Shown here piece after piece: positions 33,505 through 41,076 of a stretch of DNA of 41,076 bases; the stretch's first letter is position 1, and each line of letters opens with the position of its first letter. Position numbers and translations under genes: made by a program. The stretch is from NCBI GenBank assembly GCA_046086025.1, contig JBJSWT010000013.1, positions 1 through 41,076 of the forward strand, in the 5' to 3' direction. This DNA comes from Actinomycetes bacterium. GTDB taxonomy: Bacteria > Actinomycetota > Actinomycetes > S36-B12 > UBA5976. A model generated the notes under the pieces. That model had not been told where the DNA came from, made no database searches, and saw nothing but the letters and a program-made list of their open reading frames with translations.

Positions 33505-35724
33505 TTAAAGTTTTTCAACAGGTGCATATCTTAAAAGAAGTCTTTTTGTGCCGTGTGATCCAAAATCAATTGTGGCTTCTGAACCTTCGCCACTTCCAGC
33601 AGTTTCTTTAACAGTTCCTAATCCAAATCTTTCATGTAAAACTTTATCTCCAGGATTTAAAACTAAATATTGTTTTTCAACTCTTGGTTTACTTGCTTTA
33701 ACCATAGATGGTGCAGCACCAAAACCACCTGCCGAATAACTTTCACTCATTGGCTCAAGTCTTTGCCAACTAATTAATGAGGCAGGAATTTCATCTAAGA
33801 ATCTGGAACTTGAATTATAAGATGGTGCTCCCCAAACTGATCTTGAAATTGATCTTGTGACATAAAGTCTTTCTCTAGCTCTGGTAATTCCAACATAAGC
33901 AAGTCTTCTTTCTTCAGCTAATTCTTTGTCATTAACTTGAGATCTAGAATGAGGAAAAATTCCTTCTTCCATTCCAGTTAAAAACGTAATAGGAAATTCC
34001 AAACCTTTTGCAGTATGAAGTGTCATCAATGTAACTAATCCTTCATTGTTTCCTGGCACATCATCTGAATCTGCTACCAATGACACATGCTCCAAAAATT
34101 GAGCTAAACCGTTTTCGCCAACACTATTAGCATTTTCAAATTCTCTTGCCACAGATTCAAGTTCTGTTAAATTTTCAACTCTACTTTGGTCTTGAGGATC
34201 TTCTGAATTAAATAAGATTTCTAAGTAACTAGATTTTTCTAAAACAGCATGAACTATTTCTGAAGGTTTTGCATCTTTTAAAAACATCTCCCTAAACACA
34301 TTCATCATTTGGGCAAAATCAATTAAAGCTGCTCTTGCTTTAGGGGTAAGTTCACTTATTTTTTCAGCATTTTGAATAGCTTGACCATAGGTTAATTTAT
34401 TTTTCCTAGCAAATAAATCAATTATTTCCTCTGCTTTTTCACCTATGCCTCTTTTGGGAACATTTATTATTCTTCTTATTGATAATTCGTCATCAAAATT
34501 AATCACAGCGCGTAAATACGCTAAAACATCTTTAACTTCTTTTCGTTCATAAAACTTTAATCCTCCAACGACTCTGTAAGGAATACCAATTCTTATGAAT
34601 ACTTCTTCAAAAGCTCTTGATTGATTATTAGTTCTATAAAAAACTGAGATTTGACCATATTTGTATTCAAACTCTTCCCTTAATTTTTCTATTTCTAAAG
34701 CAACAAATGATGCTTCATCGTGTTCATTATCTGCAACGTAACCAACTATAGGTTCTCCTTGCCCTGCATCGGTCCAAAGTTTTTTCTCTCTTCTTTCTGC
34801 ATTTTGAGAAATAACAGAATTTGCCGCAGTTAAAATATTTTGGGTGGATCGATAATTTTGTTCTAATAAAATAGTTTTAGCATTTGGATAATCTCTTTCA
34901 AATTCTTCAATATTTCTTATAGTTGCTCCACGAAATGCATAAATTGATTGATCAGCATCTCCCACTACACAAAGTTCAGCAGGAGGCAATCCATCTTTTT
35001 CTGTTCCAACTAATTCTTTAATCAAAATATATTGAGCATGATTTGTATCTTGATATTCATCAACCAAAATATGTTTAAATCTATGACGATACTTTTGTTT
35101 AATATCTGGAAAAAGTTGTAAAAGTGCAACTGTGGCACCGATTAAATCGTCAAAATCAAATGCGTTTGCTCTGGCTAATCTTTGGTCATATTCGGAATAA
35201 ACTTGCCCAACTAGTCTTTCTTGTTCAGATTCAGCTTTACTCATATATGTTTCATGATCAATTAATTCACTTTTTGCATTGGAGATTTGTGCAGCTAAAG
35301 ATCTTGGGCTTAAAACTTTAGAATTAATTTCTAAACCTGCAGCAACCATCGTGACTAACCTCAGGGAATCTTGAGAATCATAAATAGAAAAAGTGGAGGT
35401 TCGACCTAACTTTTGAGCATCTGCTCTTAAGAATCGAACACAGGCTGAGTGAAATGTGGAAACTTGCATAAGTTTTGCTTTGTTTCCAACCAGGTCCAAA
35501 ACTCTTTCTTTCATTTCTCCAGCTGCCTTATTAGTAAAAGTTATGGCCAGAATTTCTTGAGGAGATACACCTCGATCACTTAATAAATAGGCAATTCTTC
35601 TAGTTAAAACTCTTGTTTTTCCAGAACCTGCTCCTGCCACAATTAAAAGAGGTGAGCCTTTATGCATCACCGCTGCTTTTTGCTGGGGATTTAAATCATC
35701 TAAAGCCGATTGAGTTTGAGACAC
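33505..35724 (-). CDS. pcrA: ATP-dependent DNA helicase PcrA/UvrD1
   Basis: SF1 helicase motifs AGAGSGKT, DEYQDTN, VGDADQSIYAFRGA and TLHTAKGLEF, plus a C-terminal Tudor-like tail (GDKVLHERFGLGTV). Confidence 0.95.
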   Translation of the reverse strand: MSQTQSALDDLNPQQKAAVMHKGSPLLIVAGAGSGKTRVLTRRIAYLLSDRGVSPQEILAITFTNKAAGEMKERVLDLVGNKAKLMQVSTFHSACVRFLRADAQKLGRTSTFSIYDSQDSLRLVTMVAAGLEINSKVLSPRSLAAQISNAKSELIDHETYMSKAESEQERLVGQVYSEYDQRLARANAFDFDDLIGATVALLQLFPDIKQKYRHRFKHILVDEYQDTNHAQYILIKELVGTEKDGLPPAELCVVGDADQSIYAFRGATIRNIEEFERDYPNAKTILLEQNYRSTQNILTAANSVISQNAERREKKLWTDAGQGEPIVGYVADNEHDEASFVALEIEKLREEFEYKYGQISVFYRTNNQSRAFEEVFIRIGIPYRVVGGLKFYERKEVKDVLAYLRAVINFDDELSIRRIINVPKRGIGEKAEEIIDLFARKNKLTYGQAIQNAEKISELTPKARAALIDFAQMMNVFREMFLKDAKPSEIVHAVLEKSSYLEILFNSEDPQDQSRVENLTELESVAREFENANSVGENGLAQFLEHVSLVADSDDVPGNNEGLVTLMTLHTAKGLEFPITFLTGMEEGIFPHSRSQVNDKELAEERRLAYVGITRARERLYVTRSISRSVWGAPSYNSSSRFLDEIPASLISWQRLEPMSESYSAGGFGAAPSMVKASKPRVEKQYLVLNPGDKVLHERFGLGTVKETAGSGEGSEATIDFGSHGTKRLLLRYAPVEKL

Positions 35725-35747
35725 TGCTTAAGTCTAAATTGTTCTAT

Positions 35748-36485
35748 ATGACTTCGCCTGTTCTAACACCTCTGGAATTTCCTCAACCTGGTTCAAAAGT
35801 ATTAGTAATTACTGCTCATCCAGATGATGTCGATTTTGGTGCTGCAGGAACTATCGCTTTATTAGTTCAAAGTGGCGTAGAAGTTAGCTATTGCATCACC
35901 ACAGATGGTCATCAAGGTGGCGAAGATGCAAGTATTTCAAGAGATGAAATGAGAAAAATTCGTCGTAAAGAACAAAGTGATGCTGCAAGAGTTTTAGGAG
36001 TTAAAGAAGTAATTTATTTAGGCAAAGACGATGGTTCAATTGTGCCTACTCTTTCGTTACGAGAAGAATTTGTAAAAGTAATTCGAAAAGTAAAACCAGA
36101 TGTATTAATAACTCAATCTCCTGAAAGAAACTGGGCCAGAATGCCAGCTTCTCACCCAGATCATTTGGCAGTTGGAGAAACTGCAATTCAAGCTGTTTAT
36201 CCAGATGCCAGAAATCAATTTGCTTTTCCCCATTTATTAAAAGAAGGTTTAGAACCTTGGAGTGTGCCATTAATTTGGGTGATGTCTCATCATTCCCCAA
36301 GTAATTTTGTAGAAATAACACATGTAGTTGAAAAAAAGTTTGAAGCACTAGAACAACATGTATCACAAACTGCTCATGTAAAAGATTTAAGAGAACGAGT
36401 TACCAGTTGGATGACTTTAGCTGCAAAAGCAGCTAACTTACCGGAAGGTAAGTTAGCTGAAATGTTTTTTGTAGTTAATGCTTAA
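35748..36485 (+). CDS. PIG-L/LmbE-family N-acetylglucosaminyl deacetylase (MshB/Mca-like)
   Basis: VLVITAHPDDVDFGAAGT (AHPDD zinc motif) and HPDH. The track ORF start 35613 overlaps pcrA by 112 nt on the other strand. I use ATG 35748, 23 nt from the pcrA start. Confidence 0.8.
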   Translation: MTSPVLTPLEFPQPGSKVLVITAHPDDVDFGAAGTIALLVQSGVEVSYCITTDGHQGGEDASISRDEMRKIRRKEQSDAARVLGVKEVIYLGKDDGSIVPTLSLREEFVKVIRKVKPDVLITQSPERNWARMPASHPDHLAVGETAIQAVYPDARNQFAFPHLLKEGLEPWSVPLIWVMSHHSPSNFVEITHVVEKKFEALEQHVSQTAHVKDLRERVTSWMTLAAKAANLPEGKLAEMFFVVNA

Positions 36486-36829
36486 ATATAAACTGCAATT
36501 GCCATATTGGCTAAAGTTAATAAACCAATACTTAACCAAATTGAATTTGAAACAGAAGATTTCTTTCTGTTTACAAAAACAATTCCTGTAATTACTAAAA
36601 CAATCAGTAATTTAATACTGATTTTGGTCATGTTTAAATCTTCCTCAACCACACCAGTTTCTGCCAAACCAACCATGACAAGGCCTGTAACTAATTGAGT
36701 AAGGGAGCCATGAAACATGGCAGGGTTTACAACTTTAGTTGCTGAACTCATTTGCACAAAGAATCCACCAAACAATGCTGCTAAACCAATAAAGTGCAAT
36801 AGAACTAACGTGTTATAAATTATTTCCAT
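36482..36829 (-). CDS. Small integral membrane protein of unknown function (four predicted TM helices)
   Basis: 115-aa ORF with four hydrophobic segments, 28 nt downstream of guaB3 on the same strand. No family recognised. Confidence 0.55.
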   Translation of the reverse strand: MEIIYNTLVLLHFIGLAALFGGFFVQMSSATKVVNPAMFHGSLTQLVTGLVMVGLAETGVVEEDLNMTKISIKLLIVLVITGIVFVNRKKSSVSNSIWLSIGLLTLANMAIAVYI

Positions 36830-36857
36830 ACTTTGATACTAACTTAAAAATTAAATT

Positions 36858-37970
36858 TTATTCTGGATTTACTACTATTTCTATTCTTTGTAATTCTTTC
36901 AAGTCGCTATAACCTGTGGTAGCCATCGCTTTCTTTAATGCCCCAACAAGATTTAAATTTCCTTGGGCATTAGTAGATGGCCCAAACAAAATCTGTTCAA
37001 GTGTTCCAACTGTGCCAAGTTCTACAACTTGACCACGAGGTAAATCTTTATGTACAGCTTCTACTCCCCAATGTTTACCAAGTCCTGGAGCTGAAGTTGA
37101 TCTAGCAAGAGCTGAACCAATCATTACTGCATCTGCACCCATTGCAATTGCTTTACTAATGTCGCCACTTTTTCCAATTGAGCCATCTGCAATTACGTGA
37201 ACGTATCTGCCACCTGATTCATCTAAATATTCTCTTCTGGCAGCAGCTACATCTGCTACTGCAGTTGCCATGGGCACTTTTACACCCAACACATCAGAAG
37301 TTGTATGAGTTGCTCCTCCACCAAATCCAACTAAAACTCCTGCAGCACCTGTTCTCATTAAATGAAGTGCTGCTTGATGAGAAGCACATCCTCCAACAAT
37401 TACTGGCACATCTAATTCATAAATAAAATTCTTTAAATTAATTGGTTCTTCATTTTTAGAAACATGTTCAGCACTTACTGTTGTTCCTCTAATAACAAAA
37501 ATATCAATTCCTGCTTCCATTACTGATTTGAAATATTTTGTAACAGATCTAGGTGAAAGAGCTGCAGCAGCAATTACACCTGCAGATTTTATTTCTTTAA
37601 TTCTTTCTTTAATTAATTCTGGTTTTATTTCAGCACTATATATTTGTTGCAAAACTTGCACACCTGATTCAGGTTTTGCATCAATTATTTTTTTAAATTC
37701 TTTCCTTGGATCTTCATAGCGAGTCCATAGTCCTTCAAGATTTAAAACTGCTAATCCGCCCAATTTGCCATAACTAATTGCAACTTCAGGAGAAACCACA
37801 GAATCCATGGGAGCTGCCATAATTGGAAATTCAAATTCGTATGCATCAATTTTCCATGAGGTCAAAACTTCCTCAGGATTTCTAGTTCTTCTAGTTGGAA
37901 CTAAAGCGATATCGTCAAATGAGTAGGCGATTCTGCCTCGTTTGGTTCCACCAATTTCTACTTCGGCCAC
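36858..37970 (-). CDS. guaB3: IMP dehydrogenase-related protein lacking the CBS subdomain (GuaB3 type)
   Basis: 370 aa with IALVPTRRTR, a TIM-barrel and GGCASHQAA, and IADGSIGKSGDISKAIAMGADAVMIG. Length and N-terminus match Rv3410c. GTG start. Confidence 0.88.
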   Translation of the reverse strand: MAEVEIGGTKRGRIAYSFDDIALVPTRRTRNPEEVLTSWKIDAYEFEFPIMAAPMDSVVSPEVAISYGKLGGLAVLNLEGLWTRYEDPRKEFKKIIDAKPESGVQVLQQIYSAEIKPELIKERIKEIKSAGVIAAAALSPRSVTKYFKSVMEAGIDIFVIRGTTVSAEHVSKNEEPINLKNFIYELDVPVIVGGCASHQAALHLMRTGAAGVLVGFGGGATHTTSDVLGVKVPMATAVADVAAARREYLDESGGRYVHVIADGSIGKSGDISKAIAMGADAVMIGSALARSTSAPGLGKHWGVEAVHKDLPRGQVVELGTVGTLEQILFGPSTNAQGNLNLVGALKKAMATTGYSDLKELQRIEIVVNPE

Positions 37971-38035
37971 AAAAAAGAAGCCTATCTTGAGTTAGAAGTT
38001 TTGGCTGTTTAGGACTAAAAATACAAAAGCTTTAG

Positions 38036-38569
38036 TCAGGATATATAGCCTTGCCGCAAGGCCTTAGCCACAGAATGAGCCCTATTTTCAGTCTGAAGTT
38101 TGAGCCTGATTCTTCGAAGATGGGTCTTAATTGTGGCATCTTGAATCTTTAAATTTTTAGCTATTTTTCTATTATTTAAGCCATGACTAATTAGAAATAG
38201 TATTTCTTTTTCTCTTCTGCTTAAAAGTTTAACTTTAGGTTTACTTATTAATATTTTAGTTATTAAATTCTTGTATTCTTCAACATTTGCTTCAATAAAA
38301 AGTGTTGAATATTTTGACTTCAAAGTCTCATTTCTTGTAGTTAAAAGTGTTACATTTTTGTTTATTAGTAACTTTTTTTGAATTTCTGTAAGTAAATTAA
38401 ATAATTGTTTATTTATTAAAATTAAATCAATACTTGAGTTCTTTAGGTAGTTTAAAGCCTGTCTAATATTTTTTAATAACACAATTGTTGAATTTATTTT
38501 TGTTAGTTGAATTTTTCTGTGGATAATCTTTCTTCTGGATAAGTTTTCTTCAATTATCAATATGTTCAT
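38036..38569 (-). CDS. Atypical NarL/FixJ (LuxR-type) response regulator with a phospho-blind receiver domain
   Basis: C-terminal GerE-type HTH (LSRREKEILFLISHGLNNRKIAKNLKIQDATIKTHLRRIRLKL). In the receiver-like N-terminus, the acidic pair is E7-E8 and the phospho-acceptor position is N53 (IDLILIN). The T78/T79 and K111-P112 positions are retained. The gene is very AT-rich. Confidence 0.8.
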   Translation of the reverse strand: MNILIIEENLSRRKIIHRKIQLTKINSTIVLLKNIRQALNYLKNSSIDLILINKQLFNLLTEIQKKLLINKNVTLLTTRNETLKSKYSTLFIEANVEEYKNLITKILISKPKVKLLSRREKEILFLISHGLNNRKIAKNLKIQDATIKTHLRRIRLKLQTENRAHSVAKALRQGYIS

Positions 38570-38605
38570 AAATCGTATGACGATTCATGAATTGTTTAAG
38601 TTTCT

Positions 38606-39610
38606 TTACAGTCCTACAGAATTTGTAATAGCAGTAATAGTGCTGGTTAAATCACTACTTCTTCTAAAATTACTTGGTAATTGCATAGGCCAACCTGGAC
38701 CTGCCACCAGCATTAATGGACTTGGCCTTAAGTTACTTAAAGTTTCTAATTCAGGATCTATATTTTTTACAGGTATTTGAGCCCATATTAAAACTGCTGC
38801 AGGGGCAAGTCTTTTTACTGAATTTATTAAAGATGAATATGGAACTCTTGCTCCTAAGACTTTAGAACTAATTCTTCTTTCAGCCAAAGCGGCCGCTGTG
38901 ACATATTGCGGGATAGTGTGTAATTCATCTGGTGCTGAGGCAGTTAAAACTGGACGAAGATTAACTGGAGCCACTAATTGATCTGCTCGAAGCCTCATTT
39001 GACCAATGATTGCTTCACTTAAAACATGTTCTGCTTCAATCCCATCACCTGTTTGTTCCCATTTAGCACCAATGGCAATTAAGACTTTGGAAATTAAATT
39101 TTCCCAAGTCCAAATAACACCTCGTGAATTAATACTTGCTGCAATTATTTGATTACATGCTTGATTGTCTAAAGAGTGGGCAGCTTTTGCTAAACCACGA
39201 GCAGCACTCGAGGCTCCTTCCATTGATAAAACTTGTCCCCCACCTGGATGGCCAAATTTTTCTGCATGATCAAGAGTTTTAACTAAATTTTCAATTTTGC
39301 TACTTAATGAGTTTGGATCAACTGGTGAAATGTTAGAAATATTTTCAACTGTGGTGTTCAAAGCAACTTTGGCAGCTTCTCCTGCTGGCATTCCTGATAA
39401 AACTAACTTTCGCATAATTTCTAATCGGGCAATATCTGTGATGCAGTAGCGGCGATGTCCGCCTTGGGACCTATCTGTGGGACAAAGGCCATAGCGGCGT
39501 TCCCAGGTTCTTAAGGTCGCTGGAGCCACCCCCACTCGCCTAGCCACCACAGCCACCGTAAGGCCTAGAGTGATGACGTTTTCTTCCTCAGGATTTAAAC
39601 CCATGAGCAT
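38606..39610 (-). CDS. MerR-family regulator with CarH/LitR-type cobalamin-binding module (helical bundle plus Rossmann-like B12 domain)
   Basis: MerR HTH LTVAVVARRVGVAPATLRTWERRYGL...GGHRRY. W207-x9-E217-H218 (AKWEQTGDGIEAEH) and E252-x-H254-x-x-P257 (PDELHTIP), numbered from the track ORF. The track start is TTG 39679. I prefer ATG 39610 (GGTGA 5 nt upstream, 15 residues before the HTH); ATG 39649 and ATG 39604 are also possible. Confidence 0.75.
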   Translation of the reverse strand: MLMGLNPEEENVITLGLTVAVVARRVGVAPATLRTWERRYGLCPTDRSQGGHRRYCITDIARLEIMRKLVLSGMPAGEAAKVALNTTVENISNISPVDPNSLSSKIENLVKTLDHAEKFGHPGGGQVLSMEGASSAARGLAKAAHSLDNQACNQIIAASINSRGVIWTWENLISKVLIAIGAKWEQTGDGIEAEHVLSEAIIGQMRLRADQLVAPVNLRPVLTASAPDELHTIPQYVTAAALAERRISSKVLGARVPYSSLINSVKRLAPAAVLIWAQIPVKNIDPELETLSNLRPSPLMLVAGPGWPMQLPSNFRRSSDLTSTITAITNSVGL

Positions 39611-39611
39611 A

Positions 39612-39630
39612 TTGTTCACCAAGTGAACAA
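39612..39630. promoter_or_regulatory. Perfect inverted repeat TTGTTCAC-CAA-GTGAACAA, candidate operator at the 5' end of the MerR/B12 regulator gene
   Basis: Read directly: 39612-39619 TTGTTCAC, 39620-39622 CAA, 39623-39630 GTGAACAA. It lies 2 nt upstream of ATG 39610. It falls inside the coding sequence only if the TTG 39679 or ATG 39649 start is used. Confidence 0.4.
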
Positions 39631-39671
39631 CTTTGGCCAATCGAGGCATAAGTGAGAGCGACTTCACAAAA

Positions 39672-39696
39672 TTAGTCAACCGGGGCGATTGACTAA
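39672..39696. promoter_or_regulatory. Perfect inverted repeat TTAGTCAA-N9-TTGACTAA, overlapping the candidate whiD -35 element
   Basis: Read directly: 39672-39679 TTAGTCAA, GC-rich spacer CCGGGGCGA, 39689-39696 TTGACTAA. It lies in the MerR/whiD divergent region. Confidence 0.4.
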
Positions 39697-39718
39697 GTTA
39701 TGAACAATTTTGTATATT
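39689..39718 (+). promoter_or_regulatory. Candidate housekeeping-sigma promoter for whiD
   Basis: -35 TTGACT (39689-39694), an 18-nt spacer, and -10 TATATT (39713-39718). This places the start site about 30 nt upstream of ATG 39756, with AAAGGA as the Shine-Dalgarno. Prediction by consensus match only. Confidence 0.35.
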
Positions 39719-39755
39719 TATTAGAAAGAAGCTCTAACAAAGGATTTATCTCAAT

Positions 39756-40055
39756 ATGGCCGACATAACCAGACTTCCTGGACCAAATGCCGATCTTTGG
39801 GATTGGCAATTAAAAGGTGCTTGCCGTGGAGAAGACCCAGAAATCTTCTTTCACCCAGAAGGTGAGCGTGGACCTGCTCGAGAGCAAAGAATTGCTCTAG
39901 CAAAATCAATCTGTGCAACTTGTCCTGTGCTGAAACAATGTGCAGCACATGCTTTGGAAGTTAGAGAACCATACGGTGTGTGGGGTGCGATGAGTGAAGA
40001 TGATCGCGAAGCAATCTATGCCCCAGTTAAAGAAGTAATGCCAGTAGCTGGCTAA
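39756..40055 (+). CDS. whiD: WhiB-family [4Fe-4S] transcription factor, orthologue of S. coelicolor WhiD / M. tuberculosis WhiB3
   Basis: MADITRLPGPNADLWDWQLKGACRG...FFHPEGERG...CATCPVLKQCAAHALEVREPYGVWG closely matches my memory of WhiD (MADFSRLPGPNADLWDWQ...FFHPEGERG...AHALAVREPYGVWGG). Confidence 0.92.
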   Translation: MADITRLPGPNADLWDWQLKGACRGEDPEIFFHPEGERGPAREQRIALAKSICATCPVLKQCAAHALEVREPYGVWGAMSEDDREAIYAPVKEVMPVAG

Positions 40056-40081
40056 CAAAGTCTTATCCCTAATAACCCTCC

Positions 40082-40119
40082 AAAAAAAATAAGGGCTCTT
40101 GAAAAAATCAAGAGCCCTT
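40082..40119 (-). terminator. Intrinsic terminator for the SDR gene, possibly weakly bidirectional for whiD
   Basis: Perfect 12-bp stem AAGGGCTCTTGA/TCAAGAGCCCTT (40091-40102 and 40108-40119) with a 5-nt loop. On the minus strand it is followed by ATTTTTTTT (40090-40082). On the plus strand it is followed by AAAAATTTATT, a weaker tail. Confidence 0.7.
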
Positions 40120-40132
40120 AAAAATTTATTAG

Positions 40133-41076
40133 TTATCTAGGAAATGCTGCAGCTACTCCACCATCAACTGCAATTACTGCACCTGTGGTTCGTGAAGAGT
40201 CATCAGATAATAAATAACTTGTGGTTAAGGCAACATCTTTAGAAGTGACATGAACTTTTAACATATTTCTAGATGCATAAAAATTTTCTAACTCTTCTGG
40301 TTTAACTCCATGAGCTTTAGCTCTTTGTTCTCTAATGCCACCTTCCCAAAGTTTTGAATTATCAAAAATTGCATCAGGATTAATTGCATTTGCTCTAATT
40401 TGAGCAGAACCACCTTCTAATGCTGCAATTCTCATTAGTTGCAACATGCCAGCTTTACTTACAGAATATCCACCAAAACCTGCACCTGGTGAAAATGCAT
40501 TCTTACTTGCAATATAAACAAGGGATCCACCAATTCCTTGTTTTCTTAAATTAATCATGGCATGTTTAGTTAATAAAAATGAAGAAGTTAAATTAACTGC
40601 TAAACCTTGATTCCACTTTTCTAAAGTTAAATCTTCTAAAGAATCTGAAACTCCAATACCAGCACTCATTACTACCCCATCAAATCCACCATAATTTTTA
40701 ATCGCAGACTGAATAGTTTCTAAAATTACATTTTCTTTTGTTTGATCTCCCACCACAAAATGTGGTTTTAAACCTTTAACATTTAAGATTTCTGCTTCTG
40801 TTTTCTTTAAACCTTCTTCAGTTAAATCAGCTAAAACTAAATTTGCCCCATTTTCAGCCAATTCCAGGGCAATTCCTCGCCCAATTCCAGAACCAGCTCC
40901 TGTCACAATAAATACAGAACCTGCAAATTTCTTAGGTTTTGGTTTCGAACTTAATTTGAATAATTCCATAGGCCAGTAATCAAAGCCAAATATTTCTCGA
41001 TCCCCAATTGTGTCTGCTTCTTTAAAGCAATCAATAACTTTTGCTGCCACGCTATGAGTATGAAATGCAATATCGG
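40133..41076 (-). CDS. Short-chain dehydrogenase domain of a probable bifunctional class II aldolase/SDR protein. The 5' end runs off the right edge of the window.
   Basis: TGAGSGIGRG cofactor motif and YSVSKAG catalytic motif. The track start 41050 is a GTG, but the frame stays open to the window end (..DIAFHTHS-VAAKV). The FDYWPMELFKL...PKPKKFAG linker resembles the junction of rhamnulose-1-phosphate aldolase/alcohol dehydrogenase fusions. Confidence 0.7.
   Translation of the reverse strand, partial: DIAFHTHSVAAKVIDCFKEADTIGDREIFGFDYWPMELFKLSSKPKPKKFAGSVFIVTGAGSGIGRGIALELAENGANLVLADLTEEGLKKTEAEILNVKGLKPHFVVGDQTKENVILETIQSAIKNYGGFDGVVMSAGIGVSDSLEDLTLEKWNQGLAVNLTSSFLLTKHAMINLRKQGIGGSLVYIASKNAFSPGAGFGGYSVSKAGMLQLMRIAALEGGSAQIRANAINPDAIFDNSKLWEGGIREQRAKAHGVKPEELENFYASRNMLKVHVTSKDVALTTSYLLSDDSSRTTGAVIAVDGGVAAAFPR

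Follow-up and report, generated by a model that had tools for sequence, protein, structure and literature searches.

We analysed a 41,076-nt stretch of actinobacterial DNA (contig JBJSWT010000013.1, positions 1 to 41,076; hereafter the window) and studied in it a regulator cluster at 36,482–40,120, within which three regulatory genes occupy positions 38036–40055. The gene proposed here as the regulated target, whiD/whiB3, encodes a 99-aa WhiB-like (Wbl) protein on the forward strand (39756–40055; Pfam Whib, 6.7e-26). Divergent from it, on the reverse strand, lies a gene for a CarH/LitR-like regulator that we refer to as merR-B12 (38606–39610, in an open reading frame (ORF) of 357 aa that stays open to a TTG at 39679; MerR_1, 4.7e-13), followed on the same strand by a gene for a LuxR/GerE regulator with a degenerate receiver (38036–38569, 177 aa; GerE, 2.8e-14). 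The ORF map bore out the packing of three regulators into 2 kb that an initial annotation of this DNA had described, and the gap between merR-B12 and luxR, given there as 36 nt, measured exactly 36 nt from the merR-B12 stop codon. Between the two divergent genes is a control region (39611–39755) that contains conserved blocks in an alignment of close relatives. For its length the initial annotation had listed both 76 and 145 bp. Homologues of the regulator begin near the residues GLTVA, and the ATG codons of close relatives align with M24/M26, placing the true merR-B12 start probably at ATG 39610 or 39604 and not at TTG 39679. Based on this placement, the real whiD-merR spacer is about 145–151 bp, and the shorter figure falls away.

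Sequence comparison identified the Wbl protein as a WhiD/WhiB3 orthologue, in agreement with the gene name first given to it. Its best relative in the Protein Data Bank (PDB) was Mycobacterium tuberculosis WhiB3 (2.7e-35), followed by WhiB1 (1.7e-18) and, far behind, WhiB4 (2.4e-10), WhiB7 (5.7e-8) and WhiB, and it has four cysteines (C23, C53, C56 and C62) and a GVWGA turn. WhiD is an Fe-S protein that binds a sigma factor; in Streptomyces proteins of this type take part in sporulation, and in M. tuberculosis they contribute to the control of redox, lipids and virulence. To our knowledge, WhiD/WhiB3 is among the most studied of actinobacterial regulators, and the switch for transcription of its gene is poorly understood.

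The N-terminus of the MerR-B12 protein matched MerR_1 (4.7e-13) and MerR (6e-10) in Pfam and has the signature WERRYG...GHRRY. It also matched the DNA-binding domain of CarA (2jml, 3.8e-6), and the corresponding domain of Thermus thermophilus CarH (TtCarH) aligned as well. The layout of the protein is a MerR winged helix, a linker of about 60 aa, a four-helix bundle and a Rossmann B12 domain. In a phmmer search of the PDB both halves aligned with TtCarH, with the W-x9-EH motif and the axial histidine in register. A homologue search found more than 1,300 relatives, most of which matched both PF02607 (B12-binding_2) and PF02310 (B12-binding); in the sample of 84 relatives used below for all statements on residue conservation, these domains were identified in 83 and 78 members, respectively. 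An AlphaFold (AF2) model built from the alignment of the same 84 sequences had a mean predicted local distance difference test (pLDDT) score of 90.3, and its twelve best Foldseek matches were all full-length TtCarH chains (E ~4e-13, probability 1.0). CarH chains that contain only the B12 domain were matched with a TM score of ~0.8, normalised to the target, and a root-mean-square deviation of ~3 Å. The family profile scored 5e-25 against TtCarH and 1.8e-14 against CtMerR of Chloracidobacterium thermophilum, a validated photoreceptor. Together, the alignments and the model indicate that the window regulator has the architecture and fold of CarH/LitR proteins, and both the CarH-type B12 module that the initial annotation had assigned to it and the structural resemblance to TtCarH that it had expected were recovered.

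To determine how the regulator is distributed, we compared two sets of related loci, which are labelled in the style L001–L081, L001 being the closest relative of the window. The first set comprised the best 80 of at least 490 relatives identified by a pattern scan in which each species was represented by one genome. A whiD-type gene was immediately upstream and divergent in 78 of these 80, and the other two had no upstream DNA. The second set, 76 loci from a scan seeded with Saccharothrix, was restricted to Pseudonocardiaceae and included Saccharothrix, Actinosynnema, Lentzea and Actinokineospora; here whiD was divergent in 75, and the exception again had no upstream DNA. Counting as informative those loci in which DNA upstream of merR-B12 is present (78 in the first set and 75 in the second), whiD therefore adjoins merR-B12 divergently in 153 of 153. 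Between the start of whiD and the regulator's conserved LTVA there are usually 180–230 nt. Carriers of the pair include many metagenome-assembled genomes of Nanopelagicales, as well as Motilibacter deserti, Umezawaea, Goodfellowiella, Longivirga and Pseudonocardiaceae. Since the synteny is conserved in all informative related loci, the packing of these genes is not a matter of chance, and the adjacency thus passed the test that the initial annotation had itself set for it, namely that it not be unique to this genome. The accompanying claim that a streamlined planktonic bacterium "has put" these regulators under B12 or light control did not hold: the pair also occurs in soil Pseudonocardiaceae and in Motilibacter, and its distribution indicates that it is ancestral and not an innovation of the plankton. 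No candidate for another partner gene conserved next to the pair was found in the related loci. As the initial annotation had supposed, our literature searches found no paper that links CarH/LitR proteins with any Wbl gene or that describes the whiD-merR-B12 pair, and the pair is unmentioned in the survey of developmental genes by Chandra and Chater.

The alignment of close relatives and an anchored comparison of all loci revealed an inverted repeat in the spacer between the two genes, with the family consensus TTCATAAGTTGGTCAA-N9-TTGAACAAnTTATGAA. In the window we propose as the operator a region of ~41 bp (39664–39704) with two inverted arms and a 9-bp spacer. The left arm is TTGACTAAGTTATGAA (39689–39704, + strand), the right arm is TTGACTAATTTTGTGA (39679–39664, − strand), and the core is a perfect inverted repeat, TTAGTCAA-N9-TTGACTAA (39672–39696). 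Read outward, each arm starts with a −35-like TTGACC/TTGAAC and has a second TGAA 11 bp further on. Four of the ten matches to the unit TGAMYAANTT in the whole window fall within 39624–39710.

The two-arm repeat was then scored across loci and genomes. A score of at least 24/32 was reached in 33 of the 80 loci, compared with none of the shuffled sequences, and the 9-bp gap was dominant. At a cut-off of 23/32, 44 matches fell inside whiD-merR spacers, and the remaining 678 kb of these loci gave none. As a general feature of whiB3 promoters the repeat was ruled out for mycobacteria, as 80 mycobacterial whiB3 loci (485 kb) had no match at this cut-off, what matches they gave were at chance level (8–12/16) and no merR-B12 gene was found within 3 kb. 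The exact pattern ARGTTRGTCAA-N10-TGAMCAANTT occurred 56 times in 185,579 species genomes. Both genes flanked 44 of these matches, three were flanked by whiD at the cut end of a locus, and the remaining nine were in cyanobacteria, Bacteroidota and other non-actinobacteria, where about nine were expected by chance by our own calculation from the size of the genome collection. Hence 47 of the 56 exact matches, and 47 of the 47 in actinobacteria, are at whiD-merR loci. No second copy of the exact pattern was found in any actinobacterial genome and no second site in the 678 kb of related loci, both searches being blind to degenerate sites. These comparisons indicate that the repeat is a single-copy cis-site, exclusive to this locus, that travels with the regulator gene, and we consider it probable that MerR-B12 regulates whiD locally.

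Other candidate sites were examined and set aside. Matches with two mismatches elsewhere in the window, which might have pointed to a wider regulon, were at chance level (13 against 6.7 expected). One sequence two mismatches from an arm, TTAAACAATTCATGAA (38584–38599, − strand), falls in the 36 nt that separate merR-B12 from luxR, beside the small palindrome AATCGTCATACGATT, and it may mean nothing. A terminator scan flagged the hairpin at 39672–39696 as terminator-like. We rejected a role as terminator or attenuator for three reasons: conservation across orders extends to the sequences of the arms and not only to their ability to pair, in most loci the two arms pair imperfectly, and the hairpin is upstream of the inferred merR-B12 promoter. 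The BldM box, TCACcCgnncGgGTGA, is unrelated to the operator.

The position of the arms relative to the predicted promoters suggests how such a site might act. Upstream of whiD a consensus scan found a single good sigma-70-like promoter, TTGACT-18-TATATT (39689–39718, + strand; 10/12), and the left arm covers its −35 box and half of its spacer. The whiD promoter of the relatives, as read from L014, L016 and the consensus, is TTGACC-17-TAnnnT. For merR-B12 an alignment of seven close loci pointed to a weak promoter that the consensus scan had missed, TTGTGA-18-CTCGAT (39640–39669, − strand), and in close relatives its −10 box reads TACGAT or TATGAT; the right operator arm overlaps its −35 box TTGTGA. 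A second inverted repeat, TTGTTCA-N5-TGAACAA (39612–39630), is just upstream of the ATG at 39610 and may be an auxiliary site. Only its promoter-proximal half is conserved, with AAAGTTGTTCA kept in L001–L005 and L081, and a match to the operator unit is at 39624–39633.

Promoter spacers of 17–18 bp suit occlusion and argue against untwisting of the DNA in the manner of MerR. A classical MerR activator would occupy the DNA between the −35 and −10 boxes and, on receipt of its signal, untwist a spacer of excessive length, and the DNA-binding domain of MerR-B12 does belong to the MerR family, with the left arm reaching into the whiD promoter spacer. However, the predicted spacers are 18 bp in the window and 17 bp in relatives, not the 19–20 bp needed for distortion, the site is centred on and upstream of the −35 box and recurs, inverted, over a second promoter, and the closest structural relatives of the protein are repressors. 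Activation of this kind is accordingly very improbable.

Whether MerR-B12 could sense light through cobalamin was assessed from its predicted chromophore pocket. W-x9-EH is the motif that caps the 5′-deoxyadenosyl group in CarH, and in MerR-B12 the cap motif KW207EQTGDGIEAE217H218 aligns with W131/E141/H142 of TtCarH. Invariant in all 84 sequences are G204xxW207, E217-H218, H254, G276xxxP280, W299 and G327-P-G-W330. The strict conservation of the residues of the adenosyl cap argues for bound adenosylcobalamin (AdoCbl). The W-x9-EH cap has been described as specific to the adenosyl form, which is photolabile, and in all CarH-type domains characterised so far the AdoCbl held by the protein is sensitive to light (PMC8156234, PMC11796333). 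Of the four elements reported as the signature of light-responsive cobalamin-binding domains with SignatureFinder (GxxW, EH, GxxH and GxxxP; PMC11796333), GxxW, EH and GxxxP are present in MerR-B12, together with the histidine of GxxH, so that the signature is incomplete by one residue.

Based on these data, we propose that MerR-B12 acts as a CarH-like repressor dedicated to whiD and to its own operon, with repression relieved by light. We hold this model to be as open to doubt as to belief. In the dark, AdoCbl-loaded MerR-B12 would oligomerise as CarH does, and the oligomer would bind the ~41-bp operator through its two inverted arms, each with two TGA(A/C) units 11 bp apart. As the arms cover the −35 boxes of the whiD and merR-B12 promoters, both would be shut. 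Light would cleave the Co-C bond, the oligomer would fall apart, and WhiD and the merR-B12 operon would be expressed. In the window this operon would consist of merR-B12, the phospho-blind LuxR gene, guaB3 and perhaps the gene for a 115-aa membrane protein; in many relatives it would be merR-B12-guaB-guaB3. Such a layout would be similar to the two-tier LitR→LitS cascade of Streptomyces, with a Wbl protein in place of a sigma factor of the extracytoplasmic function (ECF) type. Binding of MerR-B12 to the repeat, repression as opposed to activation, cobalamin binding and light sensitivity are each what we infer from sequence. For control by AdoCbl and light in particular, we judge the case to be evenly balanced. 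The protein family itself appears to be a distinct and ancient subfamily of CarH/LitR type that is dedicated to one locus.

Several observations weigh against this reading. With respect to the operator, the left arm is conserved nearly everywhere, but about half of the lineages, Pseudonocardiaceae among them, have a weak right arm or none (it was unrecognisable in L062, L066, L070, L072 and L074). CarH operators are large, lie over the −35 box and are built of 11-bp units with the consensus nAnnTnnACAn (PMC8156234); this consensus fits no frame of the arms, and the units of the proposed operator are in inverted pairs, not in tandem repeats as in CarH. With respect to the protein, the initial annotation had expected a profile search to recover MerR and B12 domains together. 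The MerR part was found, but B12-binding_2 in the window protein alone (E = 0.0086, 16.7 bits) was under its Pfam cut-off of 23 bits and emerged only from the relatives. The top NCBIfam match was CarH at 72.9 bits against an equivalog cut-off of 400, and on sequence MerR-B12 is therefore a separate CarH subfamily and not a CarH equivalog.

The pocket also departs from the known photoreceptors. The GxxH element reads D251-E-L-H254, its glycine being Asp or Glu across the family. Of the E/D-x-H-x-x-G motif, E252-L-H254 is present with an invariant histidine, and the glycine is replaced by an invariant proline (P257), giving HxxP. The serine that aligns with TtCarH VVLSAVL and CtMerR CISATI (the SxL position) is the invariant W299. 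The nucleotide-tail pocket may differ because of these last two replacements. His132 of TtCarH, which takes part in the bis-His light state, is Glu in MerR-B12, and in the two Pseudonocardiaceae proteins that were read (L062 and L070) W-x9-EH is replaced by W-x9-SH. Finally, neither the window nor the flanking DNA of related loci contains a crt, photolyase or rhodopsin gene, no B12 genes were found near the locus, and an Rfam scan of the whole window gave no match, and hence no B12 riboswitch. Given the departures in the pocket, the case for MerR-B12 as a B12 photoreceptor is short of proven.

The uneven conservation of the arms bears on the possibility that the two genes are neighbours without a regulatory link. 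In that event the repeat would be part of the architecture of the whiD promoter, read by another factor, for instance WhiD with its sigma factor, BldD or MtrA, and the MerR protein would regulate only itself or distant genes. The far better conservation of the left arm, which covers the −35 box and spacer of whiD, would be expected, and MtrA is known to bind the intergenic region between bldM and whiD in Streptomyces (PMC5845573). The motif, however, co-occurs strictly with merR-B12 in all 47 actinobacterial matches and is absent from the 80 mycobacterial whiB3 loci that lack the gene, units 11 bp apart on both strands fit a multimeric protein with a winged helix-turn-helix (HTH), and the BldM box is, as noted, unrelated. 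We regard mere synteny as distinctly improbable.

The altered pocket bears on another possibility, that the protein is of the B12-independent CarA or class II LitR kind, its B12-like domain serving for oligomerisation or for another ligand or partner. The changes of Ser to Trp299 and HxxG to HxxP, the loss of the glycine of GxxH and the Glu to Ser change in the two Pseudonocardiaceae proteins read would all be accommodated. CarA keeps a canonical motif and yet acts without B12 (PMC8156234), and a class II LitR is reported to work with a LOV partner (PMC9758184). By contrast, the invariance of W207, E217, H218 and H254 in 84 diverse members is hard to explain without a chromophore, and no candidate partner gene is conserved beside the pair. 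In addition, CtMerR has Ala at the HxxG position (HeiA); as it is a validated photoreceptor, the glycine of HxxG is not obligatory. B12 independence is thus unlikely, while being the rival to which we give the most weight.

A third possibility is that the same protein and operator form a sensor of cobalamin status in the dark, for which the signal is the availability of (adenosyl)cobalamin. It would tie the redox, lipid and propionate metabolism under WhiD, or guanine-nucleotide synthesis, to the supply of B12 in organisms that often need external corrinoids. The conserved axial histidine and cap residues, guaB directly after merR-B12 in 35 of 65 loci, a locus devoid of photoprotective genes and the presence of the family in soil Pseudonocardiaceae are all consistent with this. 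Nevertheless, the locus has no linked gene for the transport or biosynthesis of B12, and given that the W-x9-EH cap is specific to the adenosyl form, which is photolabile, even a sensor meant purely for the dark would react to light (PMC8156234, PMC11796333). We consider a sensor of this kind improbable, and rank it after B12 independence and before, in turn, mere synteny and a MerR activator. None of these rivals explains the invariance of the cap residues and the strict co-occurrence of gene and motif as well as the CarH-like model does.

Downstream of merR-B12 in the window, the gap of 36 nt to luxR is followed by one of 65 nt from luxR to guaB3, which encodes an inosine monophosphate (IMP) dehydrogenase-related protein (36858–37970, − strand; TIGR01304, 554 bits against a cut-off of 342) and is possibly in the same transcription unit. 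The 115-aa membrane protein is encoded beyond it in the ORF map (36482–36829, − strand). The terminator scan of the window found no terminator-like site between merR-B12, luxR and guaB3. The luxR gene is probably co-transcribed with merR-B12, and for the genes downstream of merR-B12 in general the short gaps suggest the same; any co-regulation of guaB, guaB3 or the LuxR gene with merR-B12 would depend on it. On the other side of the locus, a bidirectional intrinsic terminator with a 13-bp stem and T runs on both strands (40090–40120) ends whiD and a convergent gene for a short-chain dehydrogenase/reductase (SDR).

In most related loci merR-B12 is followed by guaB/guaB3, and guaB starts less than 200 nt past the merR-B12 stop in 35 of 65 loci. 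In L081, a 70%-identical relative, the order is whiB<->merR->guaB->guaB3->guaA->115aa->PIG-L->pcrA (L081:8001–13637). The clade of the window (the window and L001–L005) has neither guaB nor guaA at this locus, and in the window neither was found anywhere in its 41 kb; the window luxR occupies exactly the position of guaB in L081, and guaB3 is retained. In 35 of 82 loci a BldM-like LuxR gene lies on the same strand, at most 3.5 kb downstream of merR-B12, and none was found at any other position in these loci. High-GC loci have the order merR-B12, a protein of ~300 aa and the bldM-like gene, followed in L062 and L070 by a sigma-factor-like ORF. In these Pseudonocardiaceae loci guaB was not found downstream within the DNA compared. 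The protein between merR-B12 and bldM-like or guaB, encoded on the same strand, is Ala/Leu-rich and ~280–310 aa long (L029:5014–5949, L041:3502–4335, L062:4989–5882), and may belong to the unit as one more conserved gene product.

The initial annotation had described the LuxR protein of the window as a phospho-blind regulator in the position of BldM. Its Response_reg match was only 18 bits, below the cut-off, but hhalign aligned it over its full length with the BldM-like regulators of related loci (97.3%, E 1.9e-11). In this alignment the acidic pair DD is E7E8, the phospho-acceptor Asp is N53 and the Lys is E92. The AF2 model (pLDDT 87) has a receiver-like (beta-alpha)5 fold and an HTH, and matched NarL/FixJ regulators in Foldseek down to 6.5e-10. 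The C-terminal GerE HTH follows the pattern TVKTHxRRxxxKLxxxxRxHxVAxxxRxG that marks the BldM type. Based on alignment and model, a phospho-blind protein derived from the BldM-position response regulator is a fair description. Only 18 sequence homologues were detectable, all from its own clade; within the clade the mean column identity of 79% and the invariant HTH argue that the protein is functional.

The LuxR component varies considerably among loci. In L001, where the neighbouring genes are 89–95% identical, the gene (L001:4467–4688) is cut down to a stand-alone GerE HTH of 73 aa without a receiver, and another clade of Nanopelagicales has an independently degenerate version. With the degenerate receiver in the window, the 73-aa form in L001 and loss elsewhere, the BldM-position regulator has the look of stepwise decay. 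The window LuxR is 54% identical to its L001 counterpart, against 80–95% for its neighbours, and the low GC content of its kilobase (31%, against 43% in the merR-B12 kilobase and ~35% in the window) fits fast divergence. In five Pseudonocardiaceae loci (L062, L066, L070, L072 and L074) the BldM-like protein also has no phospho-acceptor Asp (VVLVGTQR against LVLMDVRM). These comparisons indicate that MerR-B12 is the constant partner of whiD, and that the LuxR gene is the variable, dispensable and least stable part of the locus. Of the arrangement first proposed, with a B12 gene set into a conserved order of whiD, LuxR gene and guaB3, the synteny therefore stands, but the LuxR gene is not a fixed member of it.

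The rest of the 41-kb window is occupied by housekeeping genes (pcrA, sucCD, purH, mdh, icd, sdhAB, and acyl-CoA carboxylase and cell-wall genes), and no guaB, guaA, cobalamin, carotenoid or rhodopsin genes were found in it. The SDR gene that is convergent with whiD (40133–41050, − strand) stands alone and is homologous to the C-terminal SDR part of bifunctional rhamnulose-1-phosphate aldolase/dehydrogenases; its score of 285 bits is far below the full-length cut-off, and an aldolase half, if any, would be beyond the end of the window. A PIG-L deacetylase ORF (35613–36485, + strand, TTG start) overlaps the start of pcrA by 112 nt in its listed form. Its counterpart in L081 has 245 aa, against the 290 listed in the window, and the real start is probably internal.

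Like merR-B12, the litR/carH gene of T. thermophilus is located at a divergent promoter pair, in its case with crtB. Like CarH/LitR proteins of class I (CarH of T. thermophilus, B. megaterium and M. xanthus, and LitR of Streptomyces), MerR-B12 combines a MerR N-terminus with a four-helix bundle and Rossmann domain, W-x9-EH and the axial histidine; the large proposed operator over the −35 box with units spaced at 11 bp would recall CarH, and the proposed regulator-to-regulator logic would recall LitR→LitS. It differs from them in its low identity (~21%), in a linker of ~60 aa with a conserved GGG motif, and in having Trp299 and HxxP but no glycine in GxxH and no equivalent of His132. The units of its putative operator, TGA(A/C)nnAnTT, are paired in inverted orientation as opposed to tandem nAnnTnnACAn, and it is predicted to target a Wbl gene and guaB/bldM-like genes in place of the carotenoid genes or ECF sigma factor. 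CtMerR (PDB 8JBS/8JBT) is similar in joining MerR to a cobalamin-binding domain without the glycine of HxxG or the bis-His histidine, as the profile match of 1.8e-14 reflects, but it keeps GxxH and the SxL serine, is not known to have related target genes, and is not actinobacterial. With M. xanthus CarA and class II LitR the family shares a two-domain architecture, in which those proteins keep the B12-like domain even though B12 is dispensable; MerR-B12, unlike them, keeps all cap residues across the 84 sequences and has no antirepressor (CarS) or LOV partner encoded nearby.

The backbone of the locus, whiD, a BldM-type orphan regulator, (sigD), guaB and guaB3, is shared with Streptomyces and mycobacteria, the mycobacterial order being whiB3...sigD...guaB2-guaB3. 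BldM itself retains its phosphorylation pocket (DD, D54, K), in contrast to the window LuxR, which lacks the whole pocket and ~25 residues. As the initial annotation had stated, bldM (sco4768) and whiD (sco4767) are neighbours in S. coelicolor. The two are transcribed divergently (PMC5845573), and in Streptomyces bldM faces whiD directly, with no merR-B12 gene between. BldM has been described as an atypical orphan regulator in which D54 is dispensable (PMC4125116).

Taken together, the sequence data describe what appears to be a subfamily of CarH/LitR proteins whose dedicated target and operator geometry are both new. A broader interpretation, to which we lean slightly less than to its opposite, is that an ancient photoreceptor-to-Wbl cascade exists across actinobacterial orders, that in it the CarH-like repressor is the dedicated signal input to WhiD/WhiB3 and in many lineages also to the BldM-type regulator and guaB, and that this input was lost secondarily in Streptomyces and mycobacteria. 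The pair offers a candidate environmental input, light and/or cobalamin, to WhiD/WhiB3, and it is present in the culturable genera Lentzea, Saccharothrix, Actinosynnema, Actinokineospora, Motilibacter and Longivirga. Published signature-based mining would miss the MerR-B12 subfamily because the glycine of GxxH is lost. If the proposal is true, the known output of CarH/LitR proteins would come to include a Wbl protein in addition to carotenoid genes and ECF sigma factors, and light would, via B12, directly gate a core regulator of redox and development in actinobacteria. Nanopelagicales, the most abundant freshwater bacterioplankton, would then gain a route for sensing light or B12 that is separate from rhodopsin.

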